DNA of 64,000 nucleotides from a virus, in UHGV virus genome UHGV-0015805. One strand, written 5' to 3'. This document shows positions 1,972 through 17,030 of the stretch, one piece after another. The notes under the pieces are model-generated. The model was not told the origin of the DNA. It did no database searches and saw only the letters and a list, made by a program, of their open reading frames with translations. The translations under genes and the position numbers were made by a program. Position 1 is the first letter of the stretch, and every line of letters begins with the position of its first letter.

Positions 1972-2005
1972 ACAGGGCGTAATGTTTGCAAAAGGAGGTG
2001 ATACT

Positions 2006-5000
2006 ATGCTCAAAAACTATTGTGTCTATCATTTACATACAGAGCAATCTTTGCTTGACAGCTGCACAAACTATAAGCTGTATGTAGACAAGGCCAAAAA
2101 GCTTGGTCGGACAGCGATTTGCTTTACTGAACATGGCAATCTGTACTCATGGGTAGAGAAAAAGATGTATTGCGATGAACAAGGCATTAAGTATCTGCAC
2201 GGTGTTGAGTGCTATCTCACCAAGTCGCTTTACGAATATCCTGATGTGCCTGACGAATGGTACGAAGAACATCTTGGCATGGATGAAAAGGACGTGCAAG
2301 CAGAACTTAATGAGATGCTTGAAAACAACAAACGCAAAGTGCGTGACAATTACCATACCATCCTTATTGCAAAAAATTATGATGGTGTAATGGAACTTAA
2401 TAGGCTGTGCTCACTGTCTACACAGCCCGACCATTTCTATTACAAGCCACGATTGACATTTAACGAGTTTTTAGCTATCAGCCCCAATGTTATCAAAATT
2501 TCTGCCTGCCTTGCATCCCCATTAAATAAGATGCGCAAGGGCGAAACCGATATTGACGAGCGGTTGTTACGAGCATATGATTATTATGAAATTCAGCCGC
2601 ACATTAACAGTGAAGAGCAGAAAGAATATAATCTATGGCTTGTTAAGATGTCCAAGAAATATGGCAAGCCACTGATTGCTGGAACGGACACACATAGCTT
2701 GAATCAATATAAGGCTGAATGCCGAACCATTCTTCAGCTTGCAAAGAAGATTGAATTTTCTAATGAGGACGAATTCGACCTAACATATAAAAGTTATGAC
2801 GAACTTGTTGATATGTTTGCCAAACAGGGAGTACTTGACGAGCAGACATACATTGAAGCCATCAATAACACAAATGTTATGGCAGACAGCGTTGAGCCGT
2901 TTGAGCTTGATGCTGCGTTAAAATATCCTATTCTTTATGGAGAACAGGACGAAGCAATGCTCTGGAAGGTACTTGGTGATAAGCTTGTAGATAAAGAAAA
3001 ACGCGGCGTAATCGACCGCAAGGATCGTCAAGCATATGTTGATCGCATCAAAGAAGAAATGCGTGTTCTTAAAAAAATCGGCATGACTGGCTTTATGCTG
3101 TTTATGTCCGAGATGATTTCTTGGTGTTGGGAAAATAACATTCCAGTTGGATTTTGCCGCGGCTCTGTTGGCGGGTCGATGGTGGCGTATATCAGCGATA
3201 TAATTGATGTAAATCCATTTACTTGGCATACAATGTTTGCGCGCTTTGCTAATGAACACCGTACTGAAGTGGGTGACATCGATGTAGATATAAGTCCAGA
3301 CCAACGGTACCTTGTATATGATTATATCATTAACCGCTTCGGAAAAGAAAAGACTGCATATATTCTTGCAAGCGGGACAGTTAATGACAAGGGTTGTATT
3401 GACGAGATAGGACGCGCGTTGGCTTATCGTGATGAAAATTCGCCATATACGCTTGCGAAAATAAAAGAGATTAAACAGGAATATGCCGCAGACTCCGATA
3501 AAGCAAGGCGCGATTATCCTGATTTATTCTATTACTTTGACGGACTAAACGGAACGGTTGTGTCACAGTCCATGCATCCTGCAGGAATTGTAGCAAGTCC
3601 GATTAATCTAATTGATAACTATGGCTGTTTTATCAACAATGAGGGCAAGCAGGTCATGTATATCAACATGGAAGAAGTTCACGAGACGGGGCTTGTTAAG
3701 TATGATATTTTGGGGCTGCGCAATGTTCAAATCATTCGTGATACATGCGCATTAGCCGGAATACCATATCCAAAATCTCATGAAATCAATTGGAATGATA
3801 ATGCTGTGTGGAAAGATATGGTAAAATCGCCCGTTGGGATATTCCAGTTCGAGTCCGATTTTGCCTTCAAGAGCTTGCAAAAAATGTCCCCACATAGTAT
3901 TAACGACATGTCATTAACAAATGCTGCTCTAAGACCGTCTGGCGAAAGTTATCGTGAGCGGTTGTTTAACAAAGAAGTTAATCATAATCCGTCCGAACAA
4001 ATTGATGAACTATTGGCAGATAACTATGGCTATCTTGTATTTCAGGAAGATGTCATTAAATTTCTACAAGACATATGTGGGTTAAGCGGGTCTGATGCAG
4101 ACAATGTGCGCCGGGCTATTGGGCGCAAGCAAGTTGACCGCCTGCAAAAGGCATTGCCACAAATTTTTGAGGGGTATTGCAATAAGTCTGAAAGGCCTCG
4201 CAATATTGCAGAACAAGAAGCTAAAACATTCCTACAAATTATTGAAGATAGCAGCAATTATATGTTTGGTTATAACCATAGTACGGGTTATTCAATGATT
4301 GGATATACATGTGCATATTTACGCTATCATTATCCAATCGAGTTCTGTACGGCATTGCTCAACAATGCAAATAATGATGATGATTTAACAAATGGAACGG
4401 CGCTTATTAAGCAGCTTGGCATTAAATTAAGACCGCCTTTGTTTCGTCATTCTCGGTCAACATATTTTTGCAACAAAGATGATAACACAATCTATCAAGG
4501 ATTAGATTCAATCAAACATATGTCGTCGGATGTTGCAGAAAGCCTGTATCTTCTGCGAGATAAGCAGTTCAAAAATTTCATTGATTTTTTGTTTTGTATG
4601 CAATACCTGCCAGTCAAGCCCGATAGCCGACAGCTTGATATATTGATTAAAATCGGCTATTTTTCCGAGTTTGGCAAAGCAAGGGCGTTGCTCGAGGGCG
4701 TGCGCGTATTCAATCTTTTTTATAAATCTAAGACAATAAGGCTTGACAAATGGATTGAGATGTGCTATAATATAGACGTGTTAAGGCAACACGCCGAAAA
4801 AATGACCGATAAGACGGCAAGCGGCATTGACAACTATGCTTTAATTCTTGCAATTCTTAAGCAAGAAAGTATGCCTAAGACGACCATTGTGGACATGCTG
4901 AGATGGCAAGCTGAATTTTTAGGTTATGTTGACGGTCATGATTCAAAGCGAGACATAAATGACTGGCTTGTGCTTGACAGTAAAACCACTAATTACGGTA

Positions 5001-5215
5001 TTGCGTGGTTAAGGTTATACAACCTACAACATGGAGTTGAGCGTCAATATAAGTGCAATAAAAAATGGTGGGCAACACATCAATGCAAATCGGGCGATAT
5101 AATCAAAGCCGTGCTTGACAATGTGCCTAAATGGACGAAAAATTCTGATGGCAAATTTATTAAGACGAACGAGACAGAAGTGCAAGTTAAATGTTTTAAG
5201 GTATTGGAGGAATGA
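2006..5215 (+). CDS. dnaE: DNA polymerase III alpha subunit (DnaE-like, N-terminal PHP domain)
   Basis: YHLHTEQSLLDS PHP motif; GFCRGSVGGSMVAYISDIIDVNPF matches the PolIII alpha palm motif GxGRGSAAGSLVAY; about 1070 aa; RBS AAGGAGGTG. Confidence 0.85.
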   Translation: MLKNYCVYHLHTEQSLLDSCTNYKLYVDKAKKLGRTAICFTEHGNLYSWVEKKMYCDEQGIKYLHGVECYLTKSLYEYPDVPDEWYEEHLGMDEKDVQAELNEMLENNKRKVRDNYHTILIAKNYDGVMELNRLCSLSTQPDHFYYKPRLTFNEFLAISPNVIKISACLASPLNKMRKGETDIDERLLRAYDYYEIQPHINSEEQKEYNLWLVKMSKKYGKPLIAGTDTHSLNQYKAECRTILQLAKKIEFSNEDEFDLTYKSYDELVDMFAKQGVLDEQTYIEAINNTNVMADSVEPFELDAALKYPILYGEQDEAMLWKVLGDKLVDKEKRGVIDRKDRQAYVDRIKEEMRVLKKIGMTGFMLFMSEMISWCWENNIPVGFCRGSVGGSMVAYISDIIDVNPFTWHTMFARFANEHRTEVGDIDVDISPDQRYLVYDYIINRFGKEKTAYILASGTVNDKGCIDEIGRALAYRDENSPYTLAKIKEIKQEYAADSDKARRDYPDLFYYFDGLNGTVVSQSMHPAGIVASPINLIDNYGCFINNEGKQVMYINMEEVHETGLVKYDILGLRNVQIIRDTCALAGIPYPKSHEINWNDNAVWKDMVKSPVGIFQFESDFAFKSLQKMSPHSINDMSLTNAALRPSGESYRERLFNKEVNHNPSEQIDELLADNYGYLVFQEDVIKFLQDICGLSGSDADNVRRAIGRKQVDRLQKALPQIFEGYCNKSERPRNIAEQEAKTFLQIIEDSSNYMFGYNHSTGYSMIGYTCAYLRYHYPIEFCTALLNNANNDDDLTNGTALIKQLGIKLRPPLFRHSRSTYFCNKDDNTIYQGLDSIKHMSSDVAESLYLLRDKQFKNFIDFLFCMQYLPVKPDSRQLDILIKIGYFSEFGKARALLEGVRVFNLFYKSKTIRLDKWIEMCYNIDVLRQHAEKMTDKTASGIDNYALILAILKQESMPKTTIVDMLRWQAEFLGYVDGHDSKRDINDWLVLDSKTTNYGIAWLRLYNLQHGVERQYKCNKKWWATHQCKSGDIIKAVLDNVPKWTKNSDGKFIKTNETEVQVKCFKVLEE
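4743..4771 (+). promoter_or_regulatory. consensus promoter-like element inside the dnaE coding sequence
   Basis: ttgacaaatggattgagatgtgctataat, same architecture as the intergenic promoters. Confidence 0.3.
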
Positions 5216-5383
5216 AAGAATATATTTGTGTAGCAATGCGTGGTAGACCGATTGAAAATCCGTCGTTACGAGTTGCTGGGCTTCCAACTAAGCAGCGCCT
5301 TGAGCCAAATTTTGATTGTGTCAACACACTGTCAACAGTATGCAAAGACAATATGATATTGGAGATTGTCCAAGATGAGTAAA
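5211..5383 (+). CDS. small hypothetical protein (57 aa), translationally coupled to dnaE
   Basis: ATGA overlap with the dnaE stop; GGAGG RBS just upstream. Confidence 0.25.
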
Positions 5384-5528
5384 ATTATGCATCTTGTCTA
5401 TGATGATTATAACGGCAACCTATATGGGCACATAGACTATATTGGTACTATCACGGCACATGGCTGTGGATGCAAGGCGATGCGCAACGGAATAAAAATA
5501 ATCGAAGTAATAATGGAGGATGATGACA

Positions 5529-6335
5529 ATGAGCAAACCGTATGAACTTGTTAATTTTTGCGAAATTGATAAATTCGCAACTAAGTCATATTGTGCGGTG
5601 CATGATGTAGACCCGAGCAAGAATCTTGGCGATATTACCAAGGTGGATGAGAACGAATTGCCTGAGTTTAATTGCATCTTTGGTGGTTCGCCTTGTCAAG
5701 ATTTTAGCGTTGCCGGTAAAGGTGCTGGCTCTATGTGGAAATGCCATGAATGTGGGCATGAGTACAACCCTATTACTATGCACTGGTCTAAGCGGCATAT
5801 CTGTCCTGAATGTGGTAGCGACCAGCTTGATAAGACGCGCTCATCTTTGCTTGTTGAATGGCTGCGTGTAATTCGAGCCAACAAGCCAAAGTGGGGTATT
5901 TATGAAAACGTGAAGAATATCACAGGCAAAAAGCATCGAGCCACATTCGACTTATTCGTTAAGGAACTCGAAGAATATGGCTACAATGTATATTGGAAAG
6001 TGCTTAATGCCAAAAATTATGGAGTCCCGCAAAATCGCAACCGCGTGTATGTTGTCATTGTACTGAAAGAGTTGGACAACGGCAAGTTTGAGTTCCCCAA
6101 GCCGTTCGATAATGGCGTTCGATTAAAAGATGTGCTTGAAGATGCGGTCGATGAAAAATATTATGTCGAAACCGATGCCTCCCAGGAGTTAATCGATGAA
6201 CTTGTCGAAAGTGGTAGACTCGACAAGGTAGCAAGCAATACGGTTCGTACAGGGGGGCGCAACGGCCCGATAGGCGACAGACACAATTGGGATGCTGTTG
6301 CAGTTAGGGCGAACGAGGCACATCAAAATCGATAG
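5529..6335 (+). CDS. DNA (cytosine-5) methyltransferase, part 1: motifs II-VIII plus N-terminal half of the target-recognition domain, with a zinc-ribbon insert; motif I absent here
   Basis: EIDKFA, GGSPCQDFSVAGKG (motif IV PCQ), ENVKN (VI) and QNRNRVYVV (VIII). CHECG...CPECG inserted between IV and VI. Ends at an in-frame TAG (6333-6335). Confidence 0.75.
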   Translation: MSKPYELVNFCEIDKFATKSYCAVHDVDPSKNLGDITKVDENELPEFNCIFGGSPCQDFSVAGKGAGSMWKCHECGHEYNPITMHWSKRHICPECGSDQLDKTRSSLLVEWLRVIRANKPKWGIYENVKNITGKKHRATFDLFVKELEEYGYNVYWKVLNAKNYGVPQNRNRVYVVIVLKELDNGKFEFPKPFDNGVRLKDVLEDAVDEKYYVETDASQELIDELVESGRLDKVASNTVRTGGRNGPIGDRHNWDAVAVRANEAHQNR

Positions 6336-6383
6336 ACTTTACGACATGTTGTTTCACAAAATCACGCAGGAGGATTAAAGAGA

Positions 6384-6704
6384 GTGGACATTGACACGCA
6401 AAACAAAAAATATCGCCTTAGACGGCTAACAGAAAAAGAATGCTGGCGTTTGATGGATTTTACAGATGAGCAGTTTGATAAAGCAAAGGATGCAGGACTG
6501 TCTGATACGCAGCTCTACAAGCAGGCTGGCAACAGCATTGTTGTTGGAGTGCTTGAGCAAATTATGGGCAATTTGTATGATGCTATGCCGTATTTGTTTG
6601 ATGATTTGAAAGTGGGCAGCTATTTTAGCGGCATTGGAGCGTTTGAAAGTGCGTTGGACAGAGTATATGAAAAGAAACGAAAAAAAAGGGGGGGGGGGGA
6701 CTAA
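6384..6704 (+). CDS. DNA (cytosine-5) methyltransferase, part 2: motifs IX-X followed by a C-terminal motif I (circular permutation)
   Basis: RRLTEKECWRLMDF (IX) and QAGNSIVVGVLEQI (X), then LKVGSYFSGIGAFESAL, which is a motif I FxGxG SAM loop. GTG start with AGGAGG RBS. Same reading frame as part 1. Confidence 0.7.
   Translation: MDIDTQNKKYRLRRLTEKECWRLMDFTDEQFDKAKDAGLSDTQLYKQAGNSIVVGVLEQIMGNLYDAMPYLFDDLKVGSYFSGIGAFESALDRVYEKKRKKRGGGD
6680..6699. repeat. A8 G12 homopolymer tract at the 3' end of the methyltransferase
   Basis: cgaaaaaaaagggggggggggg read directly at 6680-6699. Confidence 0.9.
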
Positions 6705-6707
6705 CCA

Positions 6708-6938
6708 ATGAAACATTGTTATGGCTTTTGTGCGTCTGAATGTATATTAGGACAATGCCCACAAGCATTGGCACAATCATGTGATTGGTATACAGATATG
6801 GGATTTGATGTTCCAAAATCATGCAGGGATTGTTGGTACAATACAGGGCAATGTGAGGACTGTGTGTTTATAGGCAGCGAACAATGTGAATATCCGAACA
6901 AAGAAAAGAAAATCGTGATTAAGGAGGTCAAAGAATAA
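6708..6938 (+). CDS. small Cys-rich protein
   Basis: 14 Cys in 76 aa. Confidence 0.4.
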   Translation: MKHCYGFCASECILGQCPQALAQSCDWYTDMGFDVPKSCRDCWYNTGQCEDCVFIGSEQCEYPNKEKKIVIKEVKE

Positions 6939-7219
6939 TGCAAGAAATAAAGCCCTGCCCTTTCTGTGGAAATCCAAAGGTTAAGCTTGTAAAGAACGCC
7001 AGCTTTTATACATTTTCATATGGTGACAAATATATAGAGCGTGTTAAATATTCTGTGCGATGCGGAGTGTGCTATGCAAGAGGTGGACTTGCAAGCGGGC
7101 TTGTTGGGGATTATGGCAATTGCGAAAATGATGTTCCAGCGCCATATCGAAATAAAATTGCCACTGACGAAGAGCTGCAGGCAAAAGCAATTGAATTGTG
7201 GAATGAGAGGATTGAATAA
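6938..7219 (+). CDS. Lar-family restriction-alleviation-like zinc-finger protein
   Basis: MQEIKPCPFCG...VRCGVCYARG matches the Lar-family CPFCG/CxxC pattern; strong RBS AAGGAGG. Confidence 0.5.
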   Translation: MQEIKPCPFCGNPKVKLVKNASFYTFSYGDKYIERVKYSVRCGVCYARGGLASGLVGDYGNCENDVPAPYRNKIATDEELQAKAIELWNERIE

Positions 7220-7620
7220 TGGATGCTGTTAAATTTCTCGAAGAAAAAGACAGGATGTGCAGATTTTATGAAACATGTTCGAAATGCCCTTGTTTTTACA
7301 AGTCCGGCATCGCTGTGAATTGCATACTTGCTAATGGGTTGTCTTTAGCAAAAAACAAAGAACAAGTCGCCATTGTTGAAAAATGGTCTGCCGAACATCC
7401 TCGTAAAACAAGACAAAGTGTATTTTTGGAGCAGTACCCCGAGGCAAAAGTAGATAAGAGCACCGGCGTGCTTGTTCTTTGCCCCGCAGCGTTAAAGAAA
7501 GAATACAGAGATGATAGAGGTGCTTGTAATGCATACTGCATCGAAAGTAATGCATACTGCATCGAAAGCGGCATTTGCGCTGATTGCCGCCGCAAGTTTT
7601 GGATGCAGGAGGTAGAATGA
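7219..7620 (+). CDS. Cys-rich hypothetical protein containing an in-frame tandem duplication
   Basis: NAYCIES NAYCIES, encoded by a 21-bp tandem repeat. Confidence 0.45.
   Translation: MDAVKFLEEKDRMCRFYETCSKCPCFYKSGIAVNCILANGLSLAKNKEQVAIVEKWSAEHPRKTRQSVFLEQYPEAKVDKSTGVLVLCPAALKKEYRDDRGACNAYCIESNAYCIESGICADCRRKFWMQEVE
7527..7568 (+). repeat. 21-bp perfect tandem duplication (2 copies)
   Basis: taatgcatactgcatcgaaag x2. Confidence 0.8.
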
Positions 7621-7763
7621 TGAAGCTAACTATTATCTTCAAAGATGAGTTTGAGGAACATATGAAAAGGCAATTTGGGTCTTTCACGAATCCGCAGGTA
7701 TATAACGTGAAGTCTATACGCATTGAACGTGGGTATCTATACTCTACTACGGTTTGTTAGTAT
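7617..7763 (+). CDS. small hypothetical protein (48 aa)
   Basis: ATGA overlap with the upstream gene; AGGAGG 5 nt upstream. Confidence 0.25.
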
Positions 7764-7810
7764 ATGGATGATATTGCCAGAGTTTACTGTGAGTGAGAGG
7801 AGGGCTAATA

Positions 7811-8125
7811 ATGGCTGAATATATTGATAAAAATGCGTTGTTTAAAGACCTTAACGATAAATATGAATGCAAAGACACTGAATGCTGGGATGTTAGTTAT
7901 ACTTTTGGCTTTGAGAGTGCCATAGGTGTAGTAAGCAAAGCATCACCACTTAATGTTGCAATTGTTAAACATGGACAGTGGATTGAGGACCACGAGTATC
8001 TCAAATGCTCAGAGTGCGGCGTGATGGTTATGGATGCGTTTTTTGATGATATTGAGGATTGGAATTACTGTCCCAACTGTGGAGCAAAAATGGAGGACGG
8101 AGCAGCAGACAACGAGACTGATTAA
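7811..8125 (+). CDS. zinc-ribbon hypothetical protein
   Basis: CxxC...CPNCG; RBS GAGAGGAGG. Confidence 0.45.
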   Translation: MAEYIDKNALFKDLNDKYECKDTECWDVSYTFGFESAIGVVSKASPLNVAIVKHGQWIEDHEYLKCSECGVMVMDAFFDDIEDWNYCPNCGAKMEDGAADNETD

Positions 8126-8213
8126 TGCGGATACTGCAGCTGCTTTCGCTGAGAACTGCGGAGCAACCTTTGTGGCAAAAAGATTAGCAGACAGTAATGT
8201 CTTTCCGGAGGTT

Positions 8214-8360
8214 GTGGTGCGATGTAAAGATTGCCAAAATCGCGGCACGATTTTCTGCCCTGTTGTGCATGAAACATTGGGCAGTGGATTAGTAGACTAC
8301 ACATCAGATGATGGTTATTGTTGGCATGGGAGTCCAATATTGGAGGGAGATAAACAATGA
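8214..8360 (+). CDS. small Cys-rich hypothetical protein (GTG start)
   Basis: GGAGG then GTG; CKDCQ...C...C; the next gene overlaps its stop as ATGA. Confidence 0.25.
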   Translation: MVRCKDCQNRGTIFCPVVHETLGSGLVDYTSDDGYCWHGSPILEGDKQ

Positions 8361-8617
8361 AAAGAATCCTCGGCGTTAATTACGAACACGGCAAAGTAAT
8401 TGGCGTAACAATTGATGGGCTAAATGATTGTAGTGGTAATGACAGTGCTTATTTCAAACGGTTAGAGCTTGCTGAGTGGAAAGATGATGAAAACTCTGCT
8501 AATTGTAAAGTATGCGGTAGATGTGGACGTGATGTTTCAATTGTCGATGCAGGTCTTTACTGTTGCAATTGTGGTTCAAAAATGTATAAAACAGACGAGG
8601 AGGTGGGCGAACCTTGA
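8357..8617 (+). CDS. zinc-ribbon hypothetical protein
   Basis: CKVCGRCG...CCNCG. Confidence 0.45.
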   Translation: MKRILGVNYEHGKVIGVTIDGLNDCSGNDSAYFKRLELAEWKDDENSANCKVCGRCGRDVSIVDAGLYCCNCGSKMYKTDEEVGEP

Positions 8618-8874
8618 CAACGAACATTAACAAAATCAACACAAAAACATACTTACCAAAGACTGTAACAGCACAAAGTGACGATAAATATTCATCAAAA
8701 CCTTGTGCTCACCGTTTGCCATGTGGCGTGTGTCGGCTTACAAATGCAATGTGCTCATTTGTTTCTTTACAACCAAGTTATATTTCTTGTAATGATACTG
8801 TACACACTAACGGATTCGGACAAACAATCATATGTAGCTCGGATGCAGATAATCATGCCAAAAGTGCTAACTAA
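8614..8874 (+). CDS. Cys-rich hypothetical protein (TTG start)
   Basis: RBS GAGGAGGTG before a TTG start; Cys-rich. Confidence 0.3.
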   Translation: MTTNINKINTKTYLPKTVTAQSDDKYSSKPCAHRLPCGVCRLTNAMCSFVSLQPSYISCNDTVHTNGFGQTIICSSDADNHAKSAN

Positions 8875-9052
8875 CGATTCAGATGTTCGCATTGGTGCAT
8901 TTCAATTCTCCGATAGAAAAAATCCGTGCCTGTGCGTCGAGAAAGGAAATCAATGCGTTGTATATGGACATTTTATTGATTCTGATAGGGCAGACGAATT
9001 TATGCACGAACTGGCATTGTTTTTAGGAATTAAGGAAAGGAAGGATGAATAA
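8855..9052 (+). CDS. hypothetical protein
   Basis: ORF in the alternate frame with protein-like composition; start uncertain. Confidence 0.25.
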   Translation: MPKVLTNDSDVRIGAFQFSDRKNPCLCVEKGNQCVVYGHFIDSDRADEFMHELALFLGIKERKDE

Positions 9053-9055
9053 GAT

Positions 9056-9688
9056 ATGAGTAGGGCAATTATGATTCTTGGCGCAAGCGGTTCTGGAAAA
9101 ACAACCAGTCTTGAAAAACTTGACCCTAAGCAAACGTTCTATATCGACGCTGATGGTAAGGGGTTGAGTTGGAAAGGGTGGCGAACGCAGTACAACAAGG
9201 AGAATAAGAATTATTTTCGATGTGATGCGCCCGAGCAAATTTTTTCTTTGATGCAACAAATTGATGAGAAGCAAAAACAAATTAAATTCCTTGTCATTGA
9301 CACACTCAATGGGTGCATGGTTGCGGACGAAATGCGAAGAGCCAAAGAAAAGACATACGACAAGTGGATGGACCTTGCACAGAGCGTGTATGGCATTGTA
9401 GACTATGCGAACAAAATGCGCGATGATTTAACGGTCATTCTTGTAGGGCATACTCAAACAAGCGAGGACGGTTTTACTTGTATGCTAACTAATGGGCGCA
9501 AGTTAAACAAGATTTGCTTGGAAAGCAAGATGACTACTGTGCTACTATCCCGAATCAACGAGAATGGCGAGTATGTATTTGAAACACGGGCAAAGAACAG
9601 TACGGCAAAAACACCCCGGGGTGCATTTGATACTGATGAAATTCCAAATGACATCACACTTGTGATTGATGCGCTGAAGGATTTTTAA
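9056..9688 (+). CDS. P-loop ATPase, Sak4-like (RecA-fold phage recombination/annealing ATPase)
   Basis: Walker A ILGASGSGKTT; about 210 aa; directly upstream of the SSB-like partner, as in Sak4/DUF669 pairs. Confidence 0.55.
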   Translation: MSRAIMILGASGSGKTTSLEKLDPKQTFYIDADGKGLSWKGWRTQYNKENKNYFRCDAPEQIFSLMQQIDEKQKQIKFLVIDTLNGCMVADEMRRAKEKTYDKWMDLAQSVYGIVDYANKMRDDLTVILVGHTQTSEDGFTCMLTNGRKLNKICLESKMTTVLLSRINENGEYVFETRAKNSTAKTPRGAFDTDEIPNDITLVIDALKDF

Positions 9689-9696
9689 TAAAATGC

Positions 9697-9725
9697 TTGA
9701 CAGTTTGATGTTTTCGTGATATAAT
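9697..9725 (+). promoter_or_regulatory. consensus promoter (TTGACA-17-TATAAT, TG-extended)
   Basis: ttgacagtttgatgttttcgtgatataat. Confidence 0.6.
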
Positions 9726-9831
9726 ATAAACAGAGGTTAGAATAAGGTTGCAAACTTGTTCTATTTGGGGCAAGGTGCTTACTCCGCCTTGCCCACTCTA
9801 AACAATTTTCTTGAGTAAGGAGAATGTAGAT

Positions 9832-10515
9832 ATGAAAAAGGGATGTCATCCATCGAACTTTATTGATATGACAGGATGGAAAATGTGGGAGCACGGAGTT
9901 ACAGACAGTAGGATAATCGTGATTTGTGAAGCTGCAAAAACAAATAGTAAAAAAGTACGATGGAAATGTATGTGTGCATGTGGCAATCCACGGGTGTTTA
10001 TCGTAGATGGAACTGGTTTGCGATTTGGAAATACATTATCCTGCGGATGCATAAAGAAGGAAAGATGCCATAAAACGCACGGTGAATCAAAAAGCAAATT
10101 ATATAATGTCTGGTGCGCAATGATAAAAAGGTGTAATAACCCACACGACCATGACTATGGGAGATATGGCGGGAGAGGAATAGGCGTTGCCTCTGAATGG
10201 AGGGATTATAAACCATTTCGCGATTGGGCAATTGCGAATGGATATAAAGAAGGACTTGAGCTTGACCGCATAGACAATGACGGAAATTATTGTCACGATA
10301 ATTGTAGATGGGTGACACATCAAGAACAATGTTGTAACAGAAGTTCTAATGTTTGGATTCAATATATGGGAAGAAAATGGTCCGTTGCAGAGTGCTCAAA
10401 ACGAACAGGAATAGCAGAAGAAACTATACGAGCGAGGGTTAAAAATGGATGGACTCCTGAGGAAATTTTCTCAGTGCCATGTAAAACAAAAAGAAAGAAA
10501 GGTAAAGTATTATGA
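9832..10515 (+). CDS. HNH endonuclease with N-terminal zinc-finger DNA-binding module
   Basis: LELDRIDNDGNYCHDNCRWVTHQEQ HNH motif; N-terminal CACGNPRVFIVDGTGLRFGNTLSCGC module, shared with the endonuclease at 55973-57028. Confidence 0.7.
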   Translation: MKKGCHPSNFIDMTGWKMWEHGVTDSRIIVICEAAKTNSKKVRWKCMCACGNPRVFIVDGTGLRFGNTLSCGCIKKERCHKTHGESKSKLYNVWCAMIKRCNNPHDHDYGRYGGRGIGVASEWRDYKPFRDWAIANGYKEGLELDRIDNDGNYCHDNCRWVTHQEQCCNRSSNVWIQYMGRKWSVAECSKRTGIAEETIRARVKNGWTPEEIFSVPCKTKRKKGKVL

Positions 10516-11123
10516 AGAAAATTAGCGGGTACGACAAAATTCAAGAAAGCGGCATGTTTAAGAAGCTTGCACCGGGTGGTTATATTGTCAAGTTGCTTGA
10601 TGCTACAGATGTTCCAGAGAAGGAATATTTAAGAATTTCATTTGATGTGTGCGAAGGGGACAATAAGGGTTTTTTTGCAAGTGAATACAAAAACGATACA
10701 AGAGAAGACAAAAAATGGCCCAACGCAGGCACATTTATTCGCTCGTACAAAGAAAAGGCGTTGCCGATGCTTAAAGGCTTTACGGTTGCCGTCGAAAAGT
10801 CAAATTCTGGATATGTGTGGAATTTTGACGAAAAGTCATTAAAGGGGAAAATCGTTGGATTAGTGTTGGGCGAAGAAGAGTTTGTCAATAGTGTGGGAAA
10901 GCTTCGTACCCGCACATATGTAGAATCCGTTCGTTCCGTTGATTCTATTCGCAAAGGCGACTTCACAATTCCTGCTCTTAAAACGCTTGACCCGAGCAAG
11001 GTTGCAAATGCAAAGAAAGAAGAAAATTTTGTGGATCCTTTTTCGGATAGCCCCGCTCAGACAGCAACGCCTGCTCCTGAAGCAAATCCGTTTGACGATT
11101 CCGATTCTAATCCTTTTGCCTGA
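10512..11123 (+). CDS. DUF669-like single-strand-binding-type protein with acidic C-terminal tail
   Basis: Sits next to the Sak4-like ATPase; C-terminus ...NPFDDSDSNPFA resembles the SSB acidic tip (DDDIPF). Confidence 0.5.
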   Translation: MKKISGYDKIQESGMFKKLAPGGYIVKLLDATDVPEKEYLRISFDVCEGDNKGFFASEYKNDTREDKKWPNAGTFIRSYKEKALPMLKGFTVAVEKSNSGYVWNFDEKSLKGKIVGLVLGEEEFVNSVGKLRTRTYVESVRSVDSIRKGDFTIPALKTLDPSKVANAKKEENFVDPFSDSPAQTATPAPEANPFDDSDSNPFA

Positions 11124-11128
11124 AACAC

Positions 11129-11563
11129 ATGAAAACCGAAGTAATGTTTTCCTCTGCCACAGATGAATGGGCAACGCCACAGAACTTGTTTGACGAATTA
11201 GACAAAGAGTTCCGCTTTGAACTTGATGTGTGTGCAAACGAAAGCAACCACAAGTGTGACAAGTATTACACCAAAGAGCAAGACGGGCTGCTAATGCCAT
11301 GGATTGCCGATGGTGCGATATGGTGTAATCCGCCTTATGGTAGGGAGATAGGCAATTGGGTAAACAGAGCGTGGCACGCATCCGCTGATGCAACGGTTGT
11401 AATGTTCTTACCCGCACGGACTGATACCAAGTGGTTTCATGACTATATCTACAAGAAACCAAATGTTGAAATTCGATTCATCAAAGGTCGCCTTAAATTT
11501 GGAGACAGTAAGAATTCTGCGCCGTTTCCGTCTATGATTGTGGTCTTTAGACCGTTTAACTAA
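11129..11563 (+). CDS. phage N6-adenine DNA methyltransferase (phage Dam family)
   Basis: DEWATPQNLF...LDVCA...WCNPPYG (NPPY catalytic motif), typical of the phage N-6-adenine-methyltransferase family. Confidence 0.75.
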   Translation: MKTEVMFSSATDEWATPQNLFDELDKEFRFELDVCANESNHKCDKYYTKEQDGLLMPWIADGAIWCNPPYGREIGNWVNRAWHASADATVVMFLPARTDTKWFHDYIYKKPNVEIRFIKGRLKFGDSKNSAPFPSMIVVFRPFN

Positions 11564-11582
11564 ATAAAGGGGTAAATGCGGT

Positions 11583-12221
11583 ATGAACAAATTTGTTGCT
11601 TGCGGGAAGCTAATAGAATTTGTCTGCCGCATTTATTCTACCCATATCAATGTAAAAACAGCACTTGATATAAACGGGCAAATAATCCAAACATCACAAA
11701 CAAGCAGTCGTAAGTGGAATGCAGATGAATGCCGGGCGGTGTTTGATATATTGCCTAACCTACATCCAAAAGTTGACGGCGTTGTTTATAATGTTGATAA
11801 ACCCTATTTTTTTTGCCGTAGAGCGCATGAAATCAGTAGGGTTATAGTTGGTGGCAATATCAACGAATGGCGCAATACAGTGTATTTTAATGCCAAATAC
11901 ATGCGTCTTATACAATCGTGCCAGCAACAAGACATGTTAGACATTCAAATTGACGGGCAGTGGGTGGATAATAACAGGCTACTAAATGTCTGTTATGATT
12001 CACCGAGAATATTTAATTTGCCAAAGCCCGCGGGAATAAGCGACAAAATATGTCGGTTATCTGTCGGCTATAATTGCGGATTTACAGTCAAGGGAAATAC
12101 TGTACTTGTGCATGACGGTGGAATATGGGTTAAGTCCGTTGAAGAAACTGACTTATGTTTCACCGAATCACAAGTTGATAATTATCTGCTTGAATATGAA
12201 ATTATTTCGGAAGAAAAATAA
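11583..12221 (+). CDS. hypothetical protein
   Basis: 212-aa ORF. Confidence 0.45.
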   Translation: MNKFVACGKLIEFVCRIYSTHINVKTALDINGQIIQTSQTSSRKWNADECRAVFDILPNLHPKVDGVVYNVDKPYFFCRRAHEISRVIVGGNINEWRNTVYFNAKYMRLIQSCQQQDMLDIQIDGQWVDNNRLLNVCYDSPRIFNLPKPAGISDKICRLSVGYNCGFTVKGNTVLVHDGGIWVKSVEETDLCFTESQVDNYLLEYEIISEEK

Positions 12222-12235
12222 TTCCAAAATAGGGG

Positions 12236-12264
12236 TTGACAAATTGTTTGATATGTGATATAAT
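12236..12264 (+). promoter_or_regulatory. consensus promoter (TTGACA-17-TATAAT, TG-extended)
   Basis: ttgacaaattgtttgatatgtgatataat. Confidence 0.6.
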
Positions 12265-12293
12265 GCAGGCAACAAATAAATGGGAGGACTTAG

Positions 12294-12770
12294 ATGCCAT
12301 CCAAAGTTAAATGCCGTCAATGTGGCAAACAAGTAGATAAATCTACTGCAATTGAAATCAAGCCGAGAATATATGTGTGCTCTGAGCAGTGCTATAATGA
12401 ATGGCAATTATCACATGAACAAAAAAGCAAGCCCGTTGCAGAAAAATCCCCAATGCGGAAATTAACGGATTATGTGCAGTCCTATGCGCCAAATACGGCA
12501 TGGGTCAAATTCGGGGCTAATGTGCAGCGTATGTGCAAAGACGGCATGACGGTTGCTGGCATTCACTATACATTGTGGTATATGCGAGAACATGAAAAAA
12601 TGCAGCTTGACGGAGACGGGCTTGGACTTGTTCAGTGGTATTATGATGCAGCTAAGAACTTCTATCAATGGCAACAGCGCATGAAACAACAAGTATCAAG
12701 CTGGCAACAAACAGACAATACTGCCGTAAAAATACAACAAAGCAATGCGAATGAGGAGGTATTCAGATGA
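12294..12770 (+). CDS. hypothetical protein with N-terminal zinc ribbon
   Basis: CRQCGK...CSEQC; RBS GGAGG. Confidence 0.45.
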   Translation: MPSKVKCRQCGKQVDKSTAIEIKPRIYVCSEQCYNEWQLSHEQKSKPVAEKSPMRKLTDYVQSYAPNTAWVKFGANVQRMCKDGMTVAGIHYTLWYMREHEKMQLDGDGLGLVQWYYDAAKNFYQWQQRMKQQVSSWQQTDNTAVKIQQSNANEEVFR

Positions 12771-13165
12771 AATACAAGGTATGCGGATTGTGCGAGAATA
12801 CTGACGGACTGTGCTATACGACTGACCCGCCTCAATATAAATGCCGGGTAACGGGGCAGTTTCATAAATTCGACGATGATTGCAATGTTGAAACAAAAAA
12901 GGACGCATTTGGATGCAATGCTAAATTGCTGACATGGCGCAGTATAAAGGACGATGTTCCGCCCACGGATGAAGAGGTGCTTGTTTGCTTTTATGATGAG
13001 CAGTCGGGCGAATACGGCTCTTGCGTGGTTGCATATTATACAAATGACGATGAAACGCTCGAGGAGTTTGAATGCCCCGTATGGTGGACCGCAGACCGCA
13101 ATTACATTGTAGACAATACAGACAAATGGGCGCACATTGAAAAGCCTGAGGTGCCTAATGTATGA
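12767..13165 (+). CDS. Cys-rich hypothetical protein
   Basis: ATGA overlap with the upstream gene. Confidence 0.4.
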   Translation: MKYKVCGLCENTDGLCYTTDPPQYKCRVTGQFHKFDDDCNVETKKDAFGCNAKLLTWRSIKDDVPPTDEEVLVCFYDEQSGEYGSCVVAYYTNDDETLEEFECPVWWTADRNYIVDNTDKWAHIEKPEVPNV

Positions 13166-14651
13166 TTTTACAGCGGCAAGGTTGTTGTTGGGATGCTTAA
13201 TTCAACGCCCAAACCTTTCTGTGAATGACAAATATCCGCTCAACAAAAAAGATTTTTCTGAACAATTATTCCATCTGCGGCTATATCAAGCAATTCACGC
13301 TCTTGCTCAAAGAGGAGCAAATAGCATATCTGCAATGGAATGTTATAATCTCTGTAGGGGCAATCAGGCAGTAAAAGAGTTGTTCGACTCAAACAATTTG
13401 TCGGCATTCATTGAGACAGTATCGAAGGTTGCAGATGTAAACAATTTTGCCCTGTATTATTCGACTGTCCGCAAATGCAGCTTAATCAATGCGTTCAAAG
13501 AGGCGGGATTCGACACGGCTAAGTTTGAGCAGGACATAAGCAAATACACAGAAGAAGAAATTTCAAGCCACTTTCTGTCACAAGCCGAAAAAATTTCAAG
13601 GGAGTTTAAGTGCGGGGCAGAAAGAGAAGAATATCTTGCTGGTGCAGATTTCATTGCAACAAAGAATAAATTCAAGGAATCGCCCGATTATGGACCATCT
13701 TTTCAGTCGCCGTATTTGAACAGCATATACAGGGGGCAAAGCGGGCTGATCTTAAGAGCGGGCAAAAGTGGCTTTGGCAAATCTGTACAGTCCATGGGCG
13801 ATGTGTGCAAATGCTGTTGCAAGGAATATTGGGACGATGAATTAAAACAATTTGTTCCTAATAAGTCCGCTGTTGGTCCAGCACTATTCATCAATACCGA
13901 AATGGACTTGCGGAAAGAGCTTGACCCACTTATTATTGCTTGGATAAGTGGCGTATCTCGAGGCAAAATCAAGGACGGATATTACTGCGGCGATGAAGAA
14001 GAACGAGTTGAACGAGCCGCGCAGATATTGCTTGATAGTAAGTTATACATTGTTGACGACCCATGCTTCACTACAACAAGCATTGTTTCGACCATAAAAG
14101 AATACAAGAACATTCACGGCATTAAGCTTGCCTGTTTTGACTATATACAGAATAATGGCTTTGTTGCAAGTGAAATTGCAGGCGAGACCAAAATTCCACA
14201 AAGAGAAGATATGGTGTTGCTTGCATTGACAGATAGGTTGAAGCAAGTACAGCGAATGTGTGACATTCCTGTTTTGACCTCTGTGCAAACAAATGGCATG
14301 GAGGACACAATGAAATATCCGACCGAGGCTTGCTTAGCCGGGTCTAAAGGGCAAATCCGCAAGACTGATGCAACAATGGTTATATTGCCACCTAAGCAGG
14401 ACGAACTTGATATATTTGATATGGCTAAGAGCAATCCTAATCTTGGAATTGACGAAAATGCGGTCTGTAATACAGTGACGCATATTCTCAAAGGCAGAAA
14501 TAGCAAGTTCCCGCGGCATGTTAAAATATATCAACAGGTCAATTATGGCACAGGCAGAACGCATGACTGGTTTGCTACAGACAAGGACGGTAATCAGGTC
14601 GACGGACTGCAGGGGCTGTTAATTGAATGTGATGGGAGGAAACAAATATGA
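13158..14651 (+). CDS. replicative DNA helicase, DnaB-like
   Basis: DnaB-N-like AARLLLGCLIQ; Walker A AGKSGFGKS; Walker B/H2 CFDYIQ; about 500 aa. Confidence 0.65.
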   Translation: MYDFTAARLLLGCLIQRPNLSVNDKYPLNKKDFSEQLFHLRLYQAIHALAQRGANSISAMECYNLCRGNQAVKELFDSNNLSAFIETVSKVADVNNFALYYSTVRKCSLINAFKEAGFDTAKFEQDISKYTEEEISSHFLSQAEKISREFKCGAEREEYLAGADFIATKNKFKESPDYGPSFQSPYLNSIYRGQSGLILRAGKSGFGKSVQSMGDVCKCCCKEYWDDELKQFVPNKSAVGPALFINTEMDLRKELDPLIIAWISGVSRGKIKDGYYCGDEEERVERAAQILLDSKLYIVDDPCFTTTSIVSTIKEYKNIHGIKLACFDYIQNNGFVASEIAGETKIPQREDMVLLALTDRLKQVQRMCDIPVLTSVQTNGMEDTMKYPTEACLAGSKGQIRKTDATMVILPPKQDELDIFDMAKSNPNLGIDENAVCNTVTHILKGRNSKFPRHVKIYQQVNYGTGRTHDWFATDKDGNQVDGLQGLLIECDGRKQI

Positions 14652-14816
14652 ACGATATGGTTCGTGCAACAATTCAGAGCTTGATTGATGAATTATATAT
14701 TAAATGGGGCTGCGACCCTGCATATTGTGTTGATAATACAATTGAAGGCAAGAAAGCAAAGATTGATGCCTATATTATTGAATGGCTAAAGGCGCATTTA
14801 GATGATGAGGTGTAAC
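14648..14816 (+). CDS. small hypothetical protein (56 aa)
   Basis: ATGA overlap with the helicase stop. Confidence 0.25.
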
Positions 14817-14875
14817 AATGCAATACATGGGCGGTAAGAGCCGCATATCTAAACAAATTTCGGAGGTTTTGAACA

Positions 14876-15587
14876 ATGCGTTATCTTGGTGGCAAGAGCA
14901 GAATTGCCAAACAGGTTGCAGAAGCGCTGAATTCTGCGCTGAGAGAGAGAGAGAGAGAGAGTATTTGTAAGCCTGTTTTGTGGCTCTTGCGCCGTTGAAT
15001 CAAAGGTGGACGCAGACATTAAAATTCTCAATGACAAGCATTCCTATCTCATTGCTATGTGGCAAAGGCTGCAACAAGGATGGCGACCGCCATATGCCGT
15101 AACAAAGGAAGAATATTATGCAATTAAAGCCAATATGAACGCCAATCCAGCATTAACCGGGTTTGTTGGCTTTGGATGTTCTTTCGGCGGAAAATGGTTC
15201 GGTGGTTATGCAAAGAGCGACAAGAAACGCAACTATTGTATGAATTCAAGAAATTCAGTGTTAAAAGATTTGCCGGGGTTGCAGGGCGCAACTTTTACTT
15301 GTCTCGACTATAAAGCCGTACCGATCCCAGATGGAGCGGTTGTATATTGTGACCCGCCTTATGCCAATACAACAGGATATAGTACGGGCGCTTTTAACAG
15401 CGACGAATTTTGGGAATACATGCGCCAATTATCTAAACGGTGCGATGTGTATATTTCCGAAGAACAAGCGCCCGGTGATTTTGAATGCATATGGGAACAA
15501 GAGTTAACGCGTTGGATTGATAGGAATAAATCTAATCAACCAAAGAAGATTGAAAAATTATTTAAGTATAAAGGAGGATGTATGTAA
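14876..15587 (+). CDS. D12-class N6-adenine DNA methyltransferase (Dam); reading frame interrupted inside a (GA)10 tract, so OFF as assembled
   Basis: Frame 2 gives N-terminal MRYLGGKSRIAKQVAEALNSAL, then (GA)10 encoding RERERE. Frame 0 continues VFVSLFCGSCAVE (FxGxG-type motif)...VYCDPPYANTTGY (DPPY). The two parts are out of frame by +1. Confidence 0.7.
14941..14960. repeat. (GA)10 dinucleotide simple-sequence repeat inside the Dam ORF
   Basis: gagagagagagagagagaga read directly. Confidence 0.95.
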
Positions 15588-15979
15588 TGAATATTAAAGA
15601 ATACAAAAGCGCGATAGAAACTCTTTATAAAGATATGTGCGAAAACGCAGACCTTGCAACAAAGCAATTTCGAGGACGGTCAAATTCCACATTAAACACT
15701 GAATGGGGACGCGGATATATGGACGCGCTCGAAACCGTGCTCAAAATTTTGGACGATGTTAAGGTTGTTAAACCGCGAACAAAGAAGCGCGAACCCATGG
15801 AAATTCAGCTTGATTATATTGAAGACCTCTATAATTTCGAGGAAATTTATTTTGGCGAAAAGCCCTCGCGCGAACGAAAGAAAGAGTTATTTGAGCAACA
15901 AATTCAGTGTGTAATTGACATCTGTAAAGAATATTACCGCCCCTATGATTTAGTAAGCATAGATGAATTAGATGATTGA
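15587..15979 (+). CDS. hypothetical protein
   Basis: GGAGG 9 nt upstream; start overlaps the Dam stop. Confidence 0.45.
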   Translation: MNIKEYKSAIETLYKDMCENADLATKQFRGRSNSTLNTEWGRGYMDALETVLKILDDVKVVKPRTKKREPMEIQLDYIEDLYNFEEIYFGEKPSRERKKELFEQQIQCVIDICKEYYRPYDLVSIDELDD

Positions 15980-17030
15980 CATTCAATCTATCAAATCGCG
16001 CCTCACAAGCGATGATATTATTGCTGTTATGGATGGCATGGGCATACCATTGGTATCGGCAAATAATCAATATCAATTGTATCCAAGTTGCTGCCACCAC
16101 ACAGATTGGCAAAATCATAAAGCAAAGCTCTATGCGTACAATGATACAAAAATGCTACATTGCTATTCGTGCGGCGAATCCTTTGATATATTTGGCATTG
16201 TTCAAAAAGTAAGGCAATGCAATTTTCAATCTTCTATTGCATATATATGTGAAATTCTGCATATAAATCCCACAGAAAATGTGCAGAAAGAAAATGTCGA
16301 TAATTGGCAGTCAGACCTTGGCAGATGGATAAAAGGCGGTGATGAATCTGAAACAGTTGAAATTCCAACATATGACAAAAGTGCAGTTGAGCTGTTTGAC
16401 CGATTATATCCGCAAGACTGGTTGCAATATGGAATTTCTGCGGACACAATGGACAAGTTCGGCATAGGTTGGTATGGGCGAAAGGCATGCATAACAATTC
16501 CTGTATGGCAAGGCGATAAGCTCGTCGGCATACGCGGAAGATATATGCGGACACAAGACACAGAAAGGGGTAAATATCGCCCTGTAAGCGATTTAAGCGG
16601 ACGTGTATATAAATACCCTACCAATGCTGTTCTGTACGGTTACAACGAAAATAAATGGCAAATACAGCGGTCTAAAACGGTGTGGCTTGTCGAAGCAGAA
16701 AAGACCGTCTTAAAATTTGACACATGGGGCATAAATAATGCCGTTGCGGTATTCGGCTCTAATATATCAAAACGGCAAATTCAAATGCTTATTGAGTTGG
16801 GTGTAAACAATGTAATACTTGGATTTGATTCGGACTACAAACAAATTGGCGATGATGATTACAAGCTATTCATTGAAAAGACTAAGCGGACAATTGCTAA
16901 GCTACGTCCATTCTTTTCGGTTGAGGTCTTTTATAATTGTTTGGGTTTTAATGCGCACAAGTTTTCCCCAACAGATTATACAAAAGAACAATTTGATGAA
17001 TTATGCAAACATATGGTAAAGGTGAATTAA
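15972..17030 (+). CDS. DNA primase (CHC2 zinc finger plus TOPRIM)
   Basis: CCHHTDWQNH...HCYSCGESFD (CHC2); WLVEAEKTVLKFD...GFDSD (TOPRIM E and DxD). Confidence 0.75.
   Translation: MIDIQSIKSRLTSDDIIAVMDGMGIPLVSANNQYQLYPSCCHHTDWQNHKAKLYAYNDTKMLHCYSCGESFDIFGIVQKVRQCNFQSSIAYICEILHINPTENVQKENVDNWQSDLGRWIKGGDESETVEIPTYDKSAVELFDRLYPQDWLQYGISADTMDKFGIGWYGRKACITIPVWQGDKLVGIRGRYMRTQDTERGKYRPVSDLSGRVYKYPTNAVLYGYNENKWQIQRSKTVWLVEAEKTVLKFDTWGINNAVAVFGSNISKRQIQMLIELGVNNVILGFDSDYKQIGDDDYKLFIEKTKRTIAKLRPFFSVEVFYNCLGFNAHKFSPTDYTKEQFDELCKHMVKVN

Follow-up and report, generated by a model that had tools for sequence, protein, structure and literature searches.

We describe a set of DNA-modification genes in the virus genome UHGV-0015805, of which a stretch of 64,000 nucleotides (nt), hereafter the window, was analysed. 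In our reading, which we rate at a probability of about 0.6, the interval 5212-15587 of the window is an accessory DNA-modification set within the early/replication module and consists of a D12/Dam adenine methylase gene, a split and permuted cytosine-C5 methylase, a phage-type NPPY adenine methylase and a Lar-like protein. The D12 gene bears the signature of a contingency (phase-variable) locus: the length of a GA repeat close to its start sets the reading frame, and otherwise identical genomes carry the gene in ON and OFF states. The features of the modification set given below are located on the + strand, and positions are those of the window unless another locus is named.

The D12 methylase gene is a probable phase-variable locus

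The D12 locus opens with a duplicated N-terminal segment. Copy 1 (MQYMGGKSRISKQISEVLNNA, 14818..14875) is entered from ATG1 in frame 1 and includes the GGAGG serving ATG2, and copy 2 (MRYLGGKSRIAKQVAEALNSAL, 14876..14940) is entered from ATG2 in frame 2. They are followed by the switch, a (GA)10 repeat (14941..14960), and by the D12 body in frame 0 (14961..15587; VFVSLFCGSCAV...DPPY, with DPPY at 15351-15362). The body matches PF02086 with 30.1 bits (cut-off 22) and scores 57.5 bits with NCBIfam TIGR00571, for which the cut-off is 114.85. ATG1 at 14818 opens MQYMGGKSRISKQ... and ATG2 at 14876 opens MRYLGGKSRIAKQ..., each being preceded by a Shine-Dalgarno (SD) sequence. When read from ATG1, copy 2 forms an open 19-residue linker, SWWQEQNCQTGCRSAEFCA. 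A frame-0 TGA is located just 5' of the repeat, which itself separates the GGK motif at the N-terminus from the FxGxG motif. The two copies of the N-terminal segment have diverged, and their 58-nt offset places ATG1 and ATG2 in reading frames that differ by one. The (GA)10 repeat is the sole dinucleotide run of more than four units in the 64 kb, and dinucleotide-preserving shuffles give an expectation of 0.00 for (GA)8 matches.

Frame simulation of the locus for n = 6-16 GA units returned a product of 235, 237 or 239 amino acids (aa) from the ATG at 14876 when n = 2 mod 3, a product of 253/255/257/259 aa from the ATG at 14818 when n = 0 mod 3, and no enzyme when n = 1 mod 3. The window has n = 10 and hence is OFF: one GGK copy is in frame 1, the other in frame 2, and the D12 body, intact and devoid of an in-frame start, is in frame 0. 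In the loci L001, L169 and L171, unlike in the window, GGK, FxGxG and DPPY share one frame. Across 3.1 kb flanks with zero mismatches, n is 9 in L171, 10 in the window and L173, and 13 in L170 and L172; the European Nucleotide Archive (ENA) gene call for L171 is a 255-aa product starting from ATG1. L001 and L169 belong to the same lineage, have n = 8 and are ON from ATG2. An earlier claim that this second D12 Dam is under repeat control is therefore borne out by the lengths of 8, 9, 10 and 13 units in identical flanks, and the gene behaves as an ON/OFF switch.

Public collections contain all three states. Products of 250-259, 235-239 and 176-207 aa are held together in three 90%-identity protein clusters, and the runs of RE/ER in catalogued products imply n from 6 to 15. 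Among the contigs listed, about 20 are ON from ATG1, about 15 are ON from ATG2 and about 17 are OFF. One metagenome scan contributed a single extra (GA)8 locus. Because the start is doubled, the ON fraction is two thirds instead of one third. Relatives at 68-82% identity (L008, P0124) retain both the 58-nt offset and an open alternative frame, and the repeat-less lineages (L002-L007, L011, L012 and L017) have a plain continuous D12 gene.

Presumably, the GA tract changes its length through slippage during replication, which would make the phage population a mixture of genomes with and without the N6-methyladenine (m6A) mark of the D12 enzyme. The ON/OFF mixture is observed at the DNA level across genomes, and a matching difference in methylation would be its expected consequence.

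Tract-length differences could in principle be produced by sequencing or assembly. Short-read platforms call long poly-G runs poorly, and several public contigs terminate exactly at the tracts. However, sequencing usually copes well with dinucleotide repeats of 16-26 nt, and the lengths recur across independent samples and pipelines (n = 8 in both JGI and OCLD data, n = 10 in three cases and n = 13 in two). Product lengths in the protein collection land exactly on the predicted series, and in relatives the G6 versus G7 state of a poly-G tract (see below) tracks the expected change of reading frame. We consider such an artefact extremely unlikely.

Another explanation is gene decay, with the repeats, the in-frame stop of the C5 gene and the frame changes being degenerative and both C5 and D12 being pseudogenes on their way out. 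The lack of an in-frame start in the D12 gene of the window would fit this. However, the D12 body is 100% identical between the OFF allele of the window and the ON allele of L001, with no second lesion. ON and OFF states are about equally numerous, and the dual-start layout is conserved at the 68-82% identity mentioned above. Together with the C5 data given in the next section, this makes decay very doubtful; like the artefact, it is poorly supported.

The D12 locus resembles the bacterial Mod methylases controlled by simple sequence repeats (Type III, Type I and Type IIG enzymes; phasevarions) in that a repeat in the 5' coding part shifts the frame and in that populations include ON and OFF variants. 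It differs from them since it encodes an orphan Dam-family enzyme located in a phage replication module without a restriction partner. A further difference is that its two start codons stem from a 58-nt duplication, now diverged, of the N-terminal motif itself, which gives two isoforms in addition to the OFF state. Like the D12 gene, lic1 of Haemophilus influenzae has start codons in different frames, so that translation is possible for more than one class of repeat number. Campylobacter phages have hypermutable poly-G tracts in receptor-binding genes, which give heritable phenotypic mixtures; in the phage described here DNA-modification genes rather than host-recognition genes are concerned, and a dinucleotide repeat rather than poly-G makes the clearest switch. 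The literature searched contained no account of a phage orphan methylase switched by a repeat. The repeat-driven phase variation of methylases, a classic strategy of bacteria, is encountered here on phage orphan methylases, and population data document all three states.

A split and permuted cytosine-C5 methylase

The permuted C5 methyltransferase reported in the preliminary description is indeed present, as judged from the PF00145 and TIGR00675 matches and the motif order II..X, I. Its N-fragment (268 aa, 5529..6335; PF00145 E 1.2e-46, TIGR00675 E 1.7e-49) carries motifs II-VIII: motif II ELVNFCEID (5544-5570), motif IV GGSPCQDFS (5682-5708), motif VI ENV (5901-5918) and motif VIII QNRNR (6030-6050). 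A CxxC...CxxC zinc-ribbon insertion (5742-5813) follows motif IV, and part of a target recognition domain (TRD; SNTVRTGGRNGPIGDRHNWD, 6234-6293) precedes the in-frame TAG that ends the fragment (6333-6335). The C-fragment (106 aa, 6384..6704) corresponds to the end of PF00145 (profile positions 270-322). It has motif IX (6420-6461), motif X QAGNSIVV (6522-6545) and a C-terminal motif I, YFSGIGAFESAL (6621-6656), of the FxGxG type with its helix. Its start codon is a GTG at 6384, 10 nt on from an AGGAGG (6368-6373), and its product is on record on 5 contigs. The open reading frames (ORFs) of the two fragments share one frame and are divided by the TAG.

Since motifs II to X are followed by motif I, the enzyme is circularly permuted. 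The catalytic motifs IV, VI and VIII and the S-adenosylmethionine motifs I and X are all present in the locus. Neither the canonical order from I to X on a single polypeptide nor the M.BssHII-type permutation, with IX and X before I-VIII, is found; the break lies between motifs I and II.

Two short cistrons precede the N-fragment, and an SD sequence is located ahead of each cistron of the cassette. The first, up1 (56 aa, 5212..5382), encodes one TRD module (VAMRGR...QRLE...NTLSTVCKDNMILE); its ATG overlaps the stop codon of the PolIII-alpha gene and is preceded by GGAGG. In BLASTP, the up1 product is 50% identical to residues 551-591 of P0006, a module fused after motif I, and 40% identical to the canonical TRD region of P0104; all nine variants in its cluster are 56 aa long. 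The second, up2 (56 aa, 5375..5545), is TRD-like (YDDYNGNLYGHIDYIGTITAHGCG...IKIIE), and the equivalent module in relatives comes after motif I in a different frame. The TRD content of the window therefore amounts to one partial TRD in the N-fragment and two upstream TRD-like cistrons, compared with 4-6 TRD modules at the canonical place in the continuous relatives L130 and P0104.

TRD-like modules were also observed beyond the end of the C5 gene in relatives. In the continuous genes L130 (11600-11900) and L156 (6640-6900), a start-less -1-frame ORF encoding two further TRD-like modules comes right after the C5 stop, and residues 520-596 of P0006 are TRD-like modules fused in frame after motif I. 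This puts TRD modules on both sides of the permutation break.

The N-fragment (II-VIII and part of a TRD) and the C-fragment (IX, X and I) would be made as two polypeptides. By analogy, they may associate as the M.AquI subunits or engineered split permutants do. In M.EcoHK31I, a two-subunit C5 methylase, the chain is interrupted within the variable region or close to it. The same holds for the two polypeptides of M.AquI (PMC5944983). In the window, unlike in these two enzymes, the C-terminal piece also carries motif I, and there are extra TRD-only cistrons.

Phage-borne C5 enzymes with tandem short TRDs between motifs VIII and IX are known from the Bacillus phages SPR, phi3T, rho11s and SPbeta, and the window enzyme is 64% identical to the SPR enzyme over motifs IX-X. 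It differs from the SPbeta group by the C-terminal position of motif I, the zinc ribbon after motif IV and the division of the gene into cistrons. In addition, TRD-like modules are present outside the VIII-IX interval, and in a sister clade each TRD module has a poly-G tract. As part of the reading put forward above, we regard the enzyme as a permuted, zinc-ribbon-bearing relative of the multispecific SPbeta-group methylases. Cytosine-C5 methyl transfer by it is predicted, the evidence being indirect and consisting of the low dN/dS values and the model of a relative described below.

The motif order II..X, I is not confined to the window. It was found in at least 85 IMG/VR loci, in 55 of which the gene is one continuous ORF of about 380-710 aa (555 aa in L130), and also across 8000 protein-search candidates, among the matches listed, whose source names are generic only. 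In place of the window's own fused C5 chain, the continuous relative P0016 was modelled with AlphaFold. Its core has a predicted local distance difference test score (pLDDT) of 85-97, and in the structural comparison M.HhaI came out as the top match (E 4.5e-16). The model places the strand (384-389) and the helix (395-409) of the C-terminal motif I inside this core, with pLDDT above 90.

According to a 2018 REBASE survey, natural permuted C5 methylases are all cut in the variable region (IX, X, I-VIII), and engineered M.MpeI permutants with new termini near the N-terminal motifs, as well as split versions, are active (PMC5944983). The natural enzymes M.BssHII, M.Alw26I, M2.Eco31I, M.Esp3I and M2.BsaI have the same fold with moved termini, as do the engineered permutants of M.MpeI and M.SssI; in the window the cut is between motifs I and II. 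Judging by their numbering, the engineered cp35/cp33 variants appear to match this break site. No later report of the II..X, I order was found in the literature. By its sequence, II..X, I is a natural permutation order that the 2018 survey did not find. The naturally split permuted enzyme is also a ready scaffold of the kind sought for targeted-methylation tools.

The stop codon that splits the gene is present at the same codon in L162, as TAA, and in P0004, so the split did not arise recently; numerous N-fragments have a length of 262-268 aa. When the window is compared with L162, the N-fragment has a ratio of nonsynonymous to synonymous substitution rates (dN/dS) of 0.074 and the C-fragment one of 0.088, and both cistrons are under purifying selection. 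The adjacent 606 nt of the PolIII gene are identical in the window and L162, which makes the C5 cassette mosaic. Compared with L162, the window locus is a deletion derivative: it has lost the ARDYKG-type TRD that L162 has in an alternative frame as well as one of the TRD cistrons, and its C-fragment has been deprived of both TRD and ATG. In the close relative L164 the whole cassette is absent. The interruption of the gene, its deletion-derived structure and its absence from L164 would all be expected if the locus were decaying. Against decay speak the low dN/dS values of both fragments and the preservation of the splitting stop in L162 as a different stop codon.

Recoding or read-through of the TAG was considered and rejected because the sister allele in L162 has TAA at the same codon. 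The idea was attractive since TAG ends none of the other 62 ORFs of the window (41 stops are TAA, 21 are TGA and one, that of the C5 gene, is TAG). Neither the window nor about 17 kb of the rest of the genome yielded a suppressor tRNA, the only tRNAs encountered being tRNA-Ile(tat) and tRNA-Phe(gaa), and no other real gene has an in-frame TAG. Moreover, in other parts of this genome a few long open stretches do end in TAG, which also argues against recoding.

Inteins (PF14890/PF13403) occur in some relatives of the N-fragment (P0004, P0024, P0026, P0056 and P0098). The intein position was aligned in P0004 only, where the intein sits between GGSP and CQDFS of motif IV, so that the catalytic cysteine is the first residue past the intein.

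Bastille-like Bacillus phages were considered as members of the family with motif X followed by I and were rejected, as they have two complete tandem genes in one frame. In Bacillus phage Deep Blue (L167, 72660-77917; genes 147/146) the complete C5 genes stand in tandem in the same frame with one stop between them, and a third, truncated copy is located downstream. Such a tandem arrangement is of the kind from which a permuted gene could arise.

Poly-G tracts at the C5 locus

A hypervariable tract, A8 (6680-6687) followed by G12 (6688-6699), occupies 6680..6699. It covers the last codons of the C-fragment (the last five in the case of G12) and the would-be SD position of the next gene. The only other + strand run of six or more G residues in the 64 kb is a G6 (6252..6257) in the TRD Gly-Gly codons of the N-fragment; dinucleotide-preserving shuffles give an expectation of 0.02 for G10 matches. 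The tract is A9G14 in L163, which is 99.95% identical over 6282 bases (about three differing positions), G12 in the 100% identical contig L166, G10 in L165 and GATGGGGGAA in L162. Exact-flank scans of viral contigs turned up no additional copy of this tract. Where a genome lacks the cassette, a normal GGAGG stands at the A8G12 position.

The preliminary description held that two of the methylases carry hypermutable tracts. Both the C5 and D12 genes do adjoin variable tracts, but the implication of switching applies to D12 only. In frame simulation any G12 length retains motif I and alters just the last 3-17 residues and the stop position, with possible stops at 6702, 6709 (an ATGA overlap with the next start) and 6737. 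As motif I is kept at every length, changes in G12 do not turn the C5 enzyme on or off. The tract may instead tune translation of the downstream Cys-rich ORF and Lar-like gene.

The closest C5 relatives have 2-8 poly-G tracts (G6-G12) in the Gly-Gly codons of individual TRD modules, with a density of 1.50 per kb in the methylase region versus 0.053 per kb elsewhere in the same loci. In the 55 continuous genes the same glycines are encoded as GGT GGC, with essentially no tracts. The tract homologous to the G6 of the window is G6, G7, G8 or G11 in relatives and sets the TRD tail of the N-fragment: depending on G6 or G7, the fragment ends after DRHQWD or is read on into a ANTLLARDYKGFGN module. 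In the window, both alternative frames of the G6 tract reach a stop quickly.

Two loci, L100 and L102 (IMG/VR 3300018430_000066 and 3300018427_000033), have eight TRD modules each provided with a G7-G11 tract and parted by stops and frame changes; their first tract differs, being G6 versus G11. In L102 no tract setting alone yields one continuous ORF. Poly-G is not limited to methylase genes in this phage group, since L162 has a G8 (4685-4692) in an unrelated 178-aa ORF.

We speculate that the C5 locus may encode a cytosine methylase assembled from modules on several cistrons and combinatorial in its specificity, in which short TRDs may be supplied as N-fragment tails, within the C-fragment or separately (up1, up2 and the extra cistron of L162), with the modules of the sister clade each switched by its own poly-G tract. 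This wider view is rather unlikely in our estimate. If true, the population would possess a heritable, shuffling repertoire of 5-methylcytosine (m5C) specificities and, together with the three-state m6A switch, a phage-borne combinatorial system of epigenetic camouflage.

Repeats of this kind might also act at the RNA level, slippage on G12 or (GA)10 or ribosomal frameshifting mixing the frames within each cell so that the DNA state matters little. Homopolymers of 9 or more are generally known to cause transcriptional slippage, and the start-less -1-frame ORF following the C5 stop in group-A relatives can be reached only via a frame change. However, heritable DNA length differences are seen directly, dinucleotide repeats are not classical sites of transcriptional slippage, and the two-start layout of the D12 gene is sensible only if the DNA frame sets the outcome. 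An RNA-level explanation therefore seems improbable.

In virome assemblies, methylase genes that look 'frameshifted' and contigs that break off at tracts of this kind may reflect biology rather than error.

Purpose of the set and its genomic setting

The NPPY N6-adenine methylase, placed by the preliminary description at 11129-11563, was recovered there: the phage-type gene (11129..11563, NPPY at 11327-11338) matches PF05869 with 112.6 bits against a cut-off of 28.1, is intact, retains its catalytic motif and has no repeat. The CPFCG...CGVC protein of the same description is a 93-aa member of the Lar zinc-ribbon family by both its profile match and its zinc ribbon (6938..7219; PF14354 35.1 bits, cut-off 28.6; PHROG 599, E 1.2e-8), with the cysteine pairs CPFCG and CGVC at 6956-6970 and 7061-7072. 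It resembles Lar of the Rac prophage and Ral of lambda as a small zinc-ribbon protein of the PF14354/TIGR03655 type and differs from them in that about 35 extra residues are inserted when it is compared with the profile. From this resemblance, restriction alleviation by the Lar-like protein is predicted. To our knowledge, Lar activity has been shown only for the Escherichia coli protein, on EcoKI-type systems.

Acting together, these genes would mark progeny DNA by one m5C and two m6A activities, complemented by the Lar-type protein. The marks would protect DNA from Type I and Type II restriction, and the unmarked fraction of the population would survive methylation-dependent (Type IV) nucleases. 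The finding suggests that phages may hedge between hosts that cut unmethylated DNA and hosts that cut methylated DNA, which bears on host range and on the persistence of gut phage populations.

The main rival is a regulatory or lysogen-directed role, as an integrase is present. The methylases could serve replication, packaging or the lysis-lysogeny choice, or form a prophage-borne phasevarion changing host expression. A tyrosine recombinase and an HU-like protein are encoded upstream of the window, and because of these the phage may be temperate. Bacterial phase-variable methylases serve as regulators, and a prophage Dam-like methylase, PamA, alters Staphylococcus aureus traits (review PMC13076061). 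On the other hand, the genes are co-oriented with those of polymerase, helicase and primase behind strong consensus promoters, which fits expression during lytic growth. The Lar-family gene beside the C5 cassette points to restriction systems, and an essential role fits poorly with one third of the genomes being OFF. A regulatory role is accordingly the less likely of the two, with some chance of being correct.

The anti-restriction or bet-hedging purpose of the set is a reasonable extrapolation from the known roles of phage orphan methylases and Lar. Several points weigh against the reading put forward here. The GA repeat-length differences were seen between assemblies rather than inside one clonal population, and homopolymer lengths of 12-14 nt are error-prone in short-read assemblies. 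The D12 isoform made from ATG1 bears the 19-residue out-of-frame linker, and its AlphaFold model, with a mean pLDDT of 52, is uninformative. The C-fragment of the C5 enzyme has no TRD and no ATG and relies on GTG, so it may be poorly expressed or inactive; the dN/dS signal spans the whole path to L162, not just the time after the deletion. Finally, the Lar-like protein scores 38.5 bits with TIGR03655, just below the NCBIfam cut-off of 39.6, and the NPPY methylase scores 96.3 bits with the equivalog TIGR01712, just below the cut-off of 97.05.

All four modification and Lar genes are located within the + strand replication module that takes up 1-20 kb of the window. The module includes the genes for PolIII-alpha (1982-5215), DnaB (13137-14651), primase (15972-17030) and a RecD-like helicase (17032-19218). 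When the remaining ORFs of the interval were scanned with Pfam and PHROG, an HNH endonuclease (9811-10515), an AAA_24 ATPase (9056-9688) and zinc-ribbon proteins were recognised, and no further anti-restriction gene. Between the C5 cassette and the Lar-like gene lies a Cys-rich 76-aa ORF (6708..6938).

A perfect sigma-70 consensus (TTGACA-17-TATAAT, with TG) at 4743..4771, about 470 nt 5' of the C5 cassette, is a candidate promoter from which the cassette would be transcribed together with the Cys-rich ORF and the Lar-like gene. Another one (12236..12264) is located upstream of the operon of DnaB and D12; both were recognised by consensus match only. Matches at 12 of 12 positions occur at 1080-1108, 4743-4771, 9697-9725 and 12236-12264, all on the coding strand of the early region.

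The same genome, that of an uncultured phage of about 84.6 kb, is present in public human-gut assemblies, one of them from a Hadza sample. Its markers include SPbeta-like YonG and YonD, an integrase and an HU-like gene. No near-identical DNA was found among isolated phages. The closest cultured relative by DnaB is Enterocloster phage PMBT24 (32% identity), and for the C5 N-fragment cultured relatives reach at most 44% identity. The host is probably a member of the Bacillota, possibly one of the Lachnospiraceae or Erysipelotrichaceae.

Homing-endonuclease genes (HNH, GIY-YIG) vary among near-identical genomes of the phage. The loci concerned are 9811-10515 in the window, 1178-1900 in L160, and 11236-12072 in L182 versus 11117-12073 and 15038-15796 in L183.

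The replication module is headed by an ORF resembling class-V aminotransferases and cysteine desulfurases (PF00266, 13-1083), and a short ORF at 19769-20281 matches the C-terminal part only of ThyX (PF02511). Either of the two could be related to nucleotide or DNA modification. Downstream of the Lar-like gene, another Cys-rich ORF (7219-7620) contains an exact 21-bp tandem duplication (7526-7568), which encodes NAYCIES twice.

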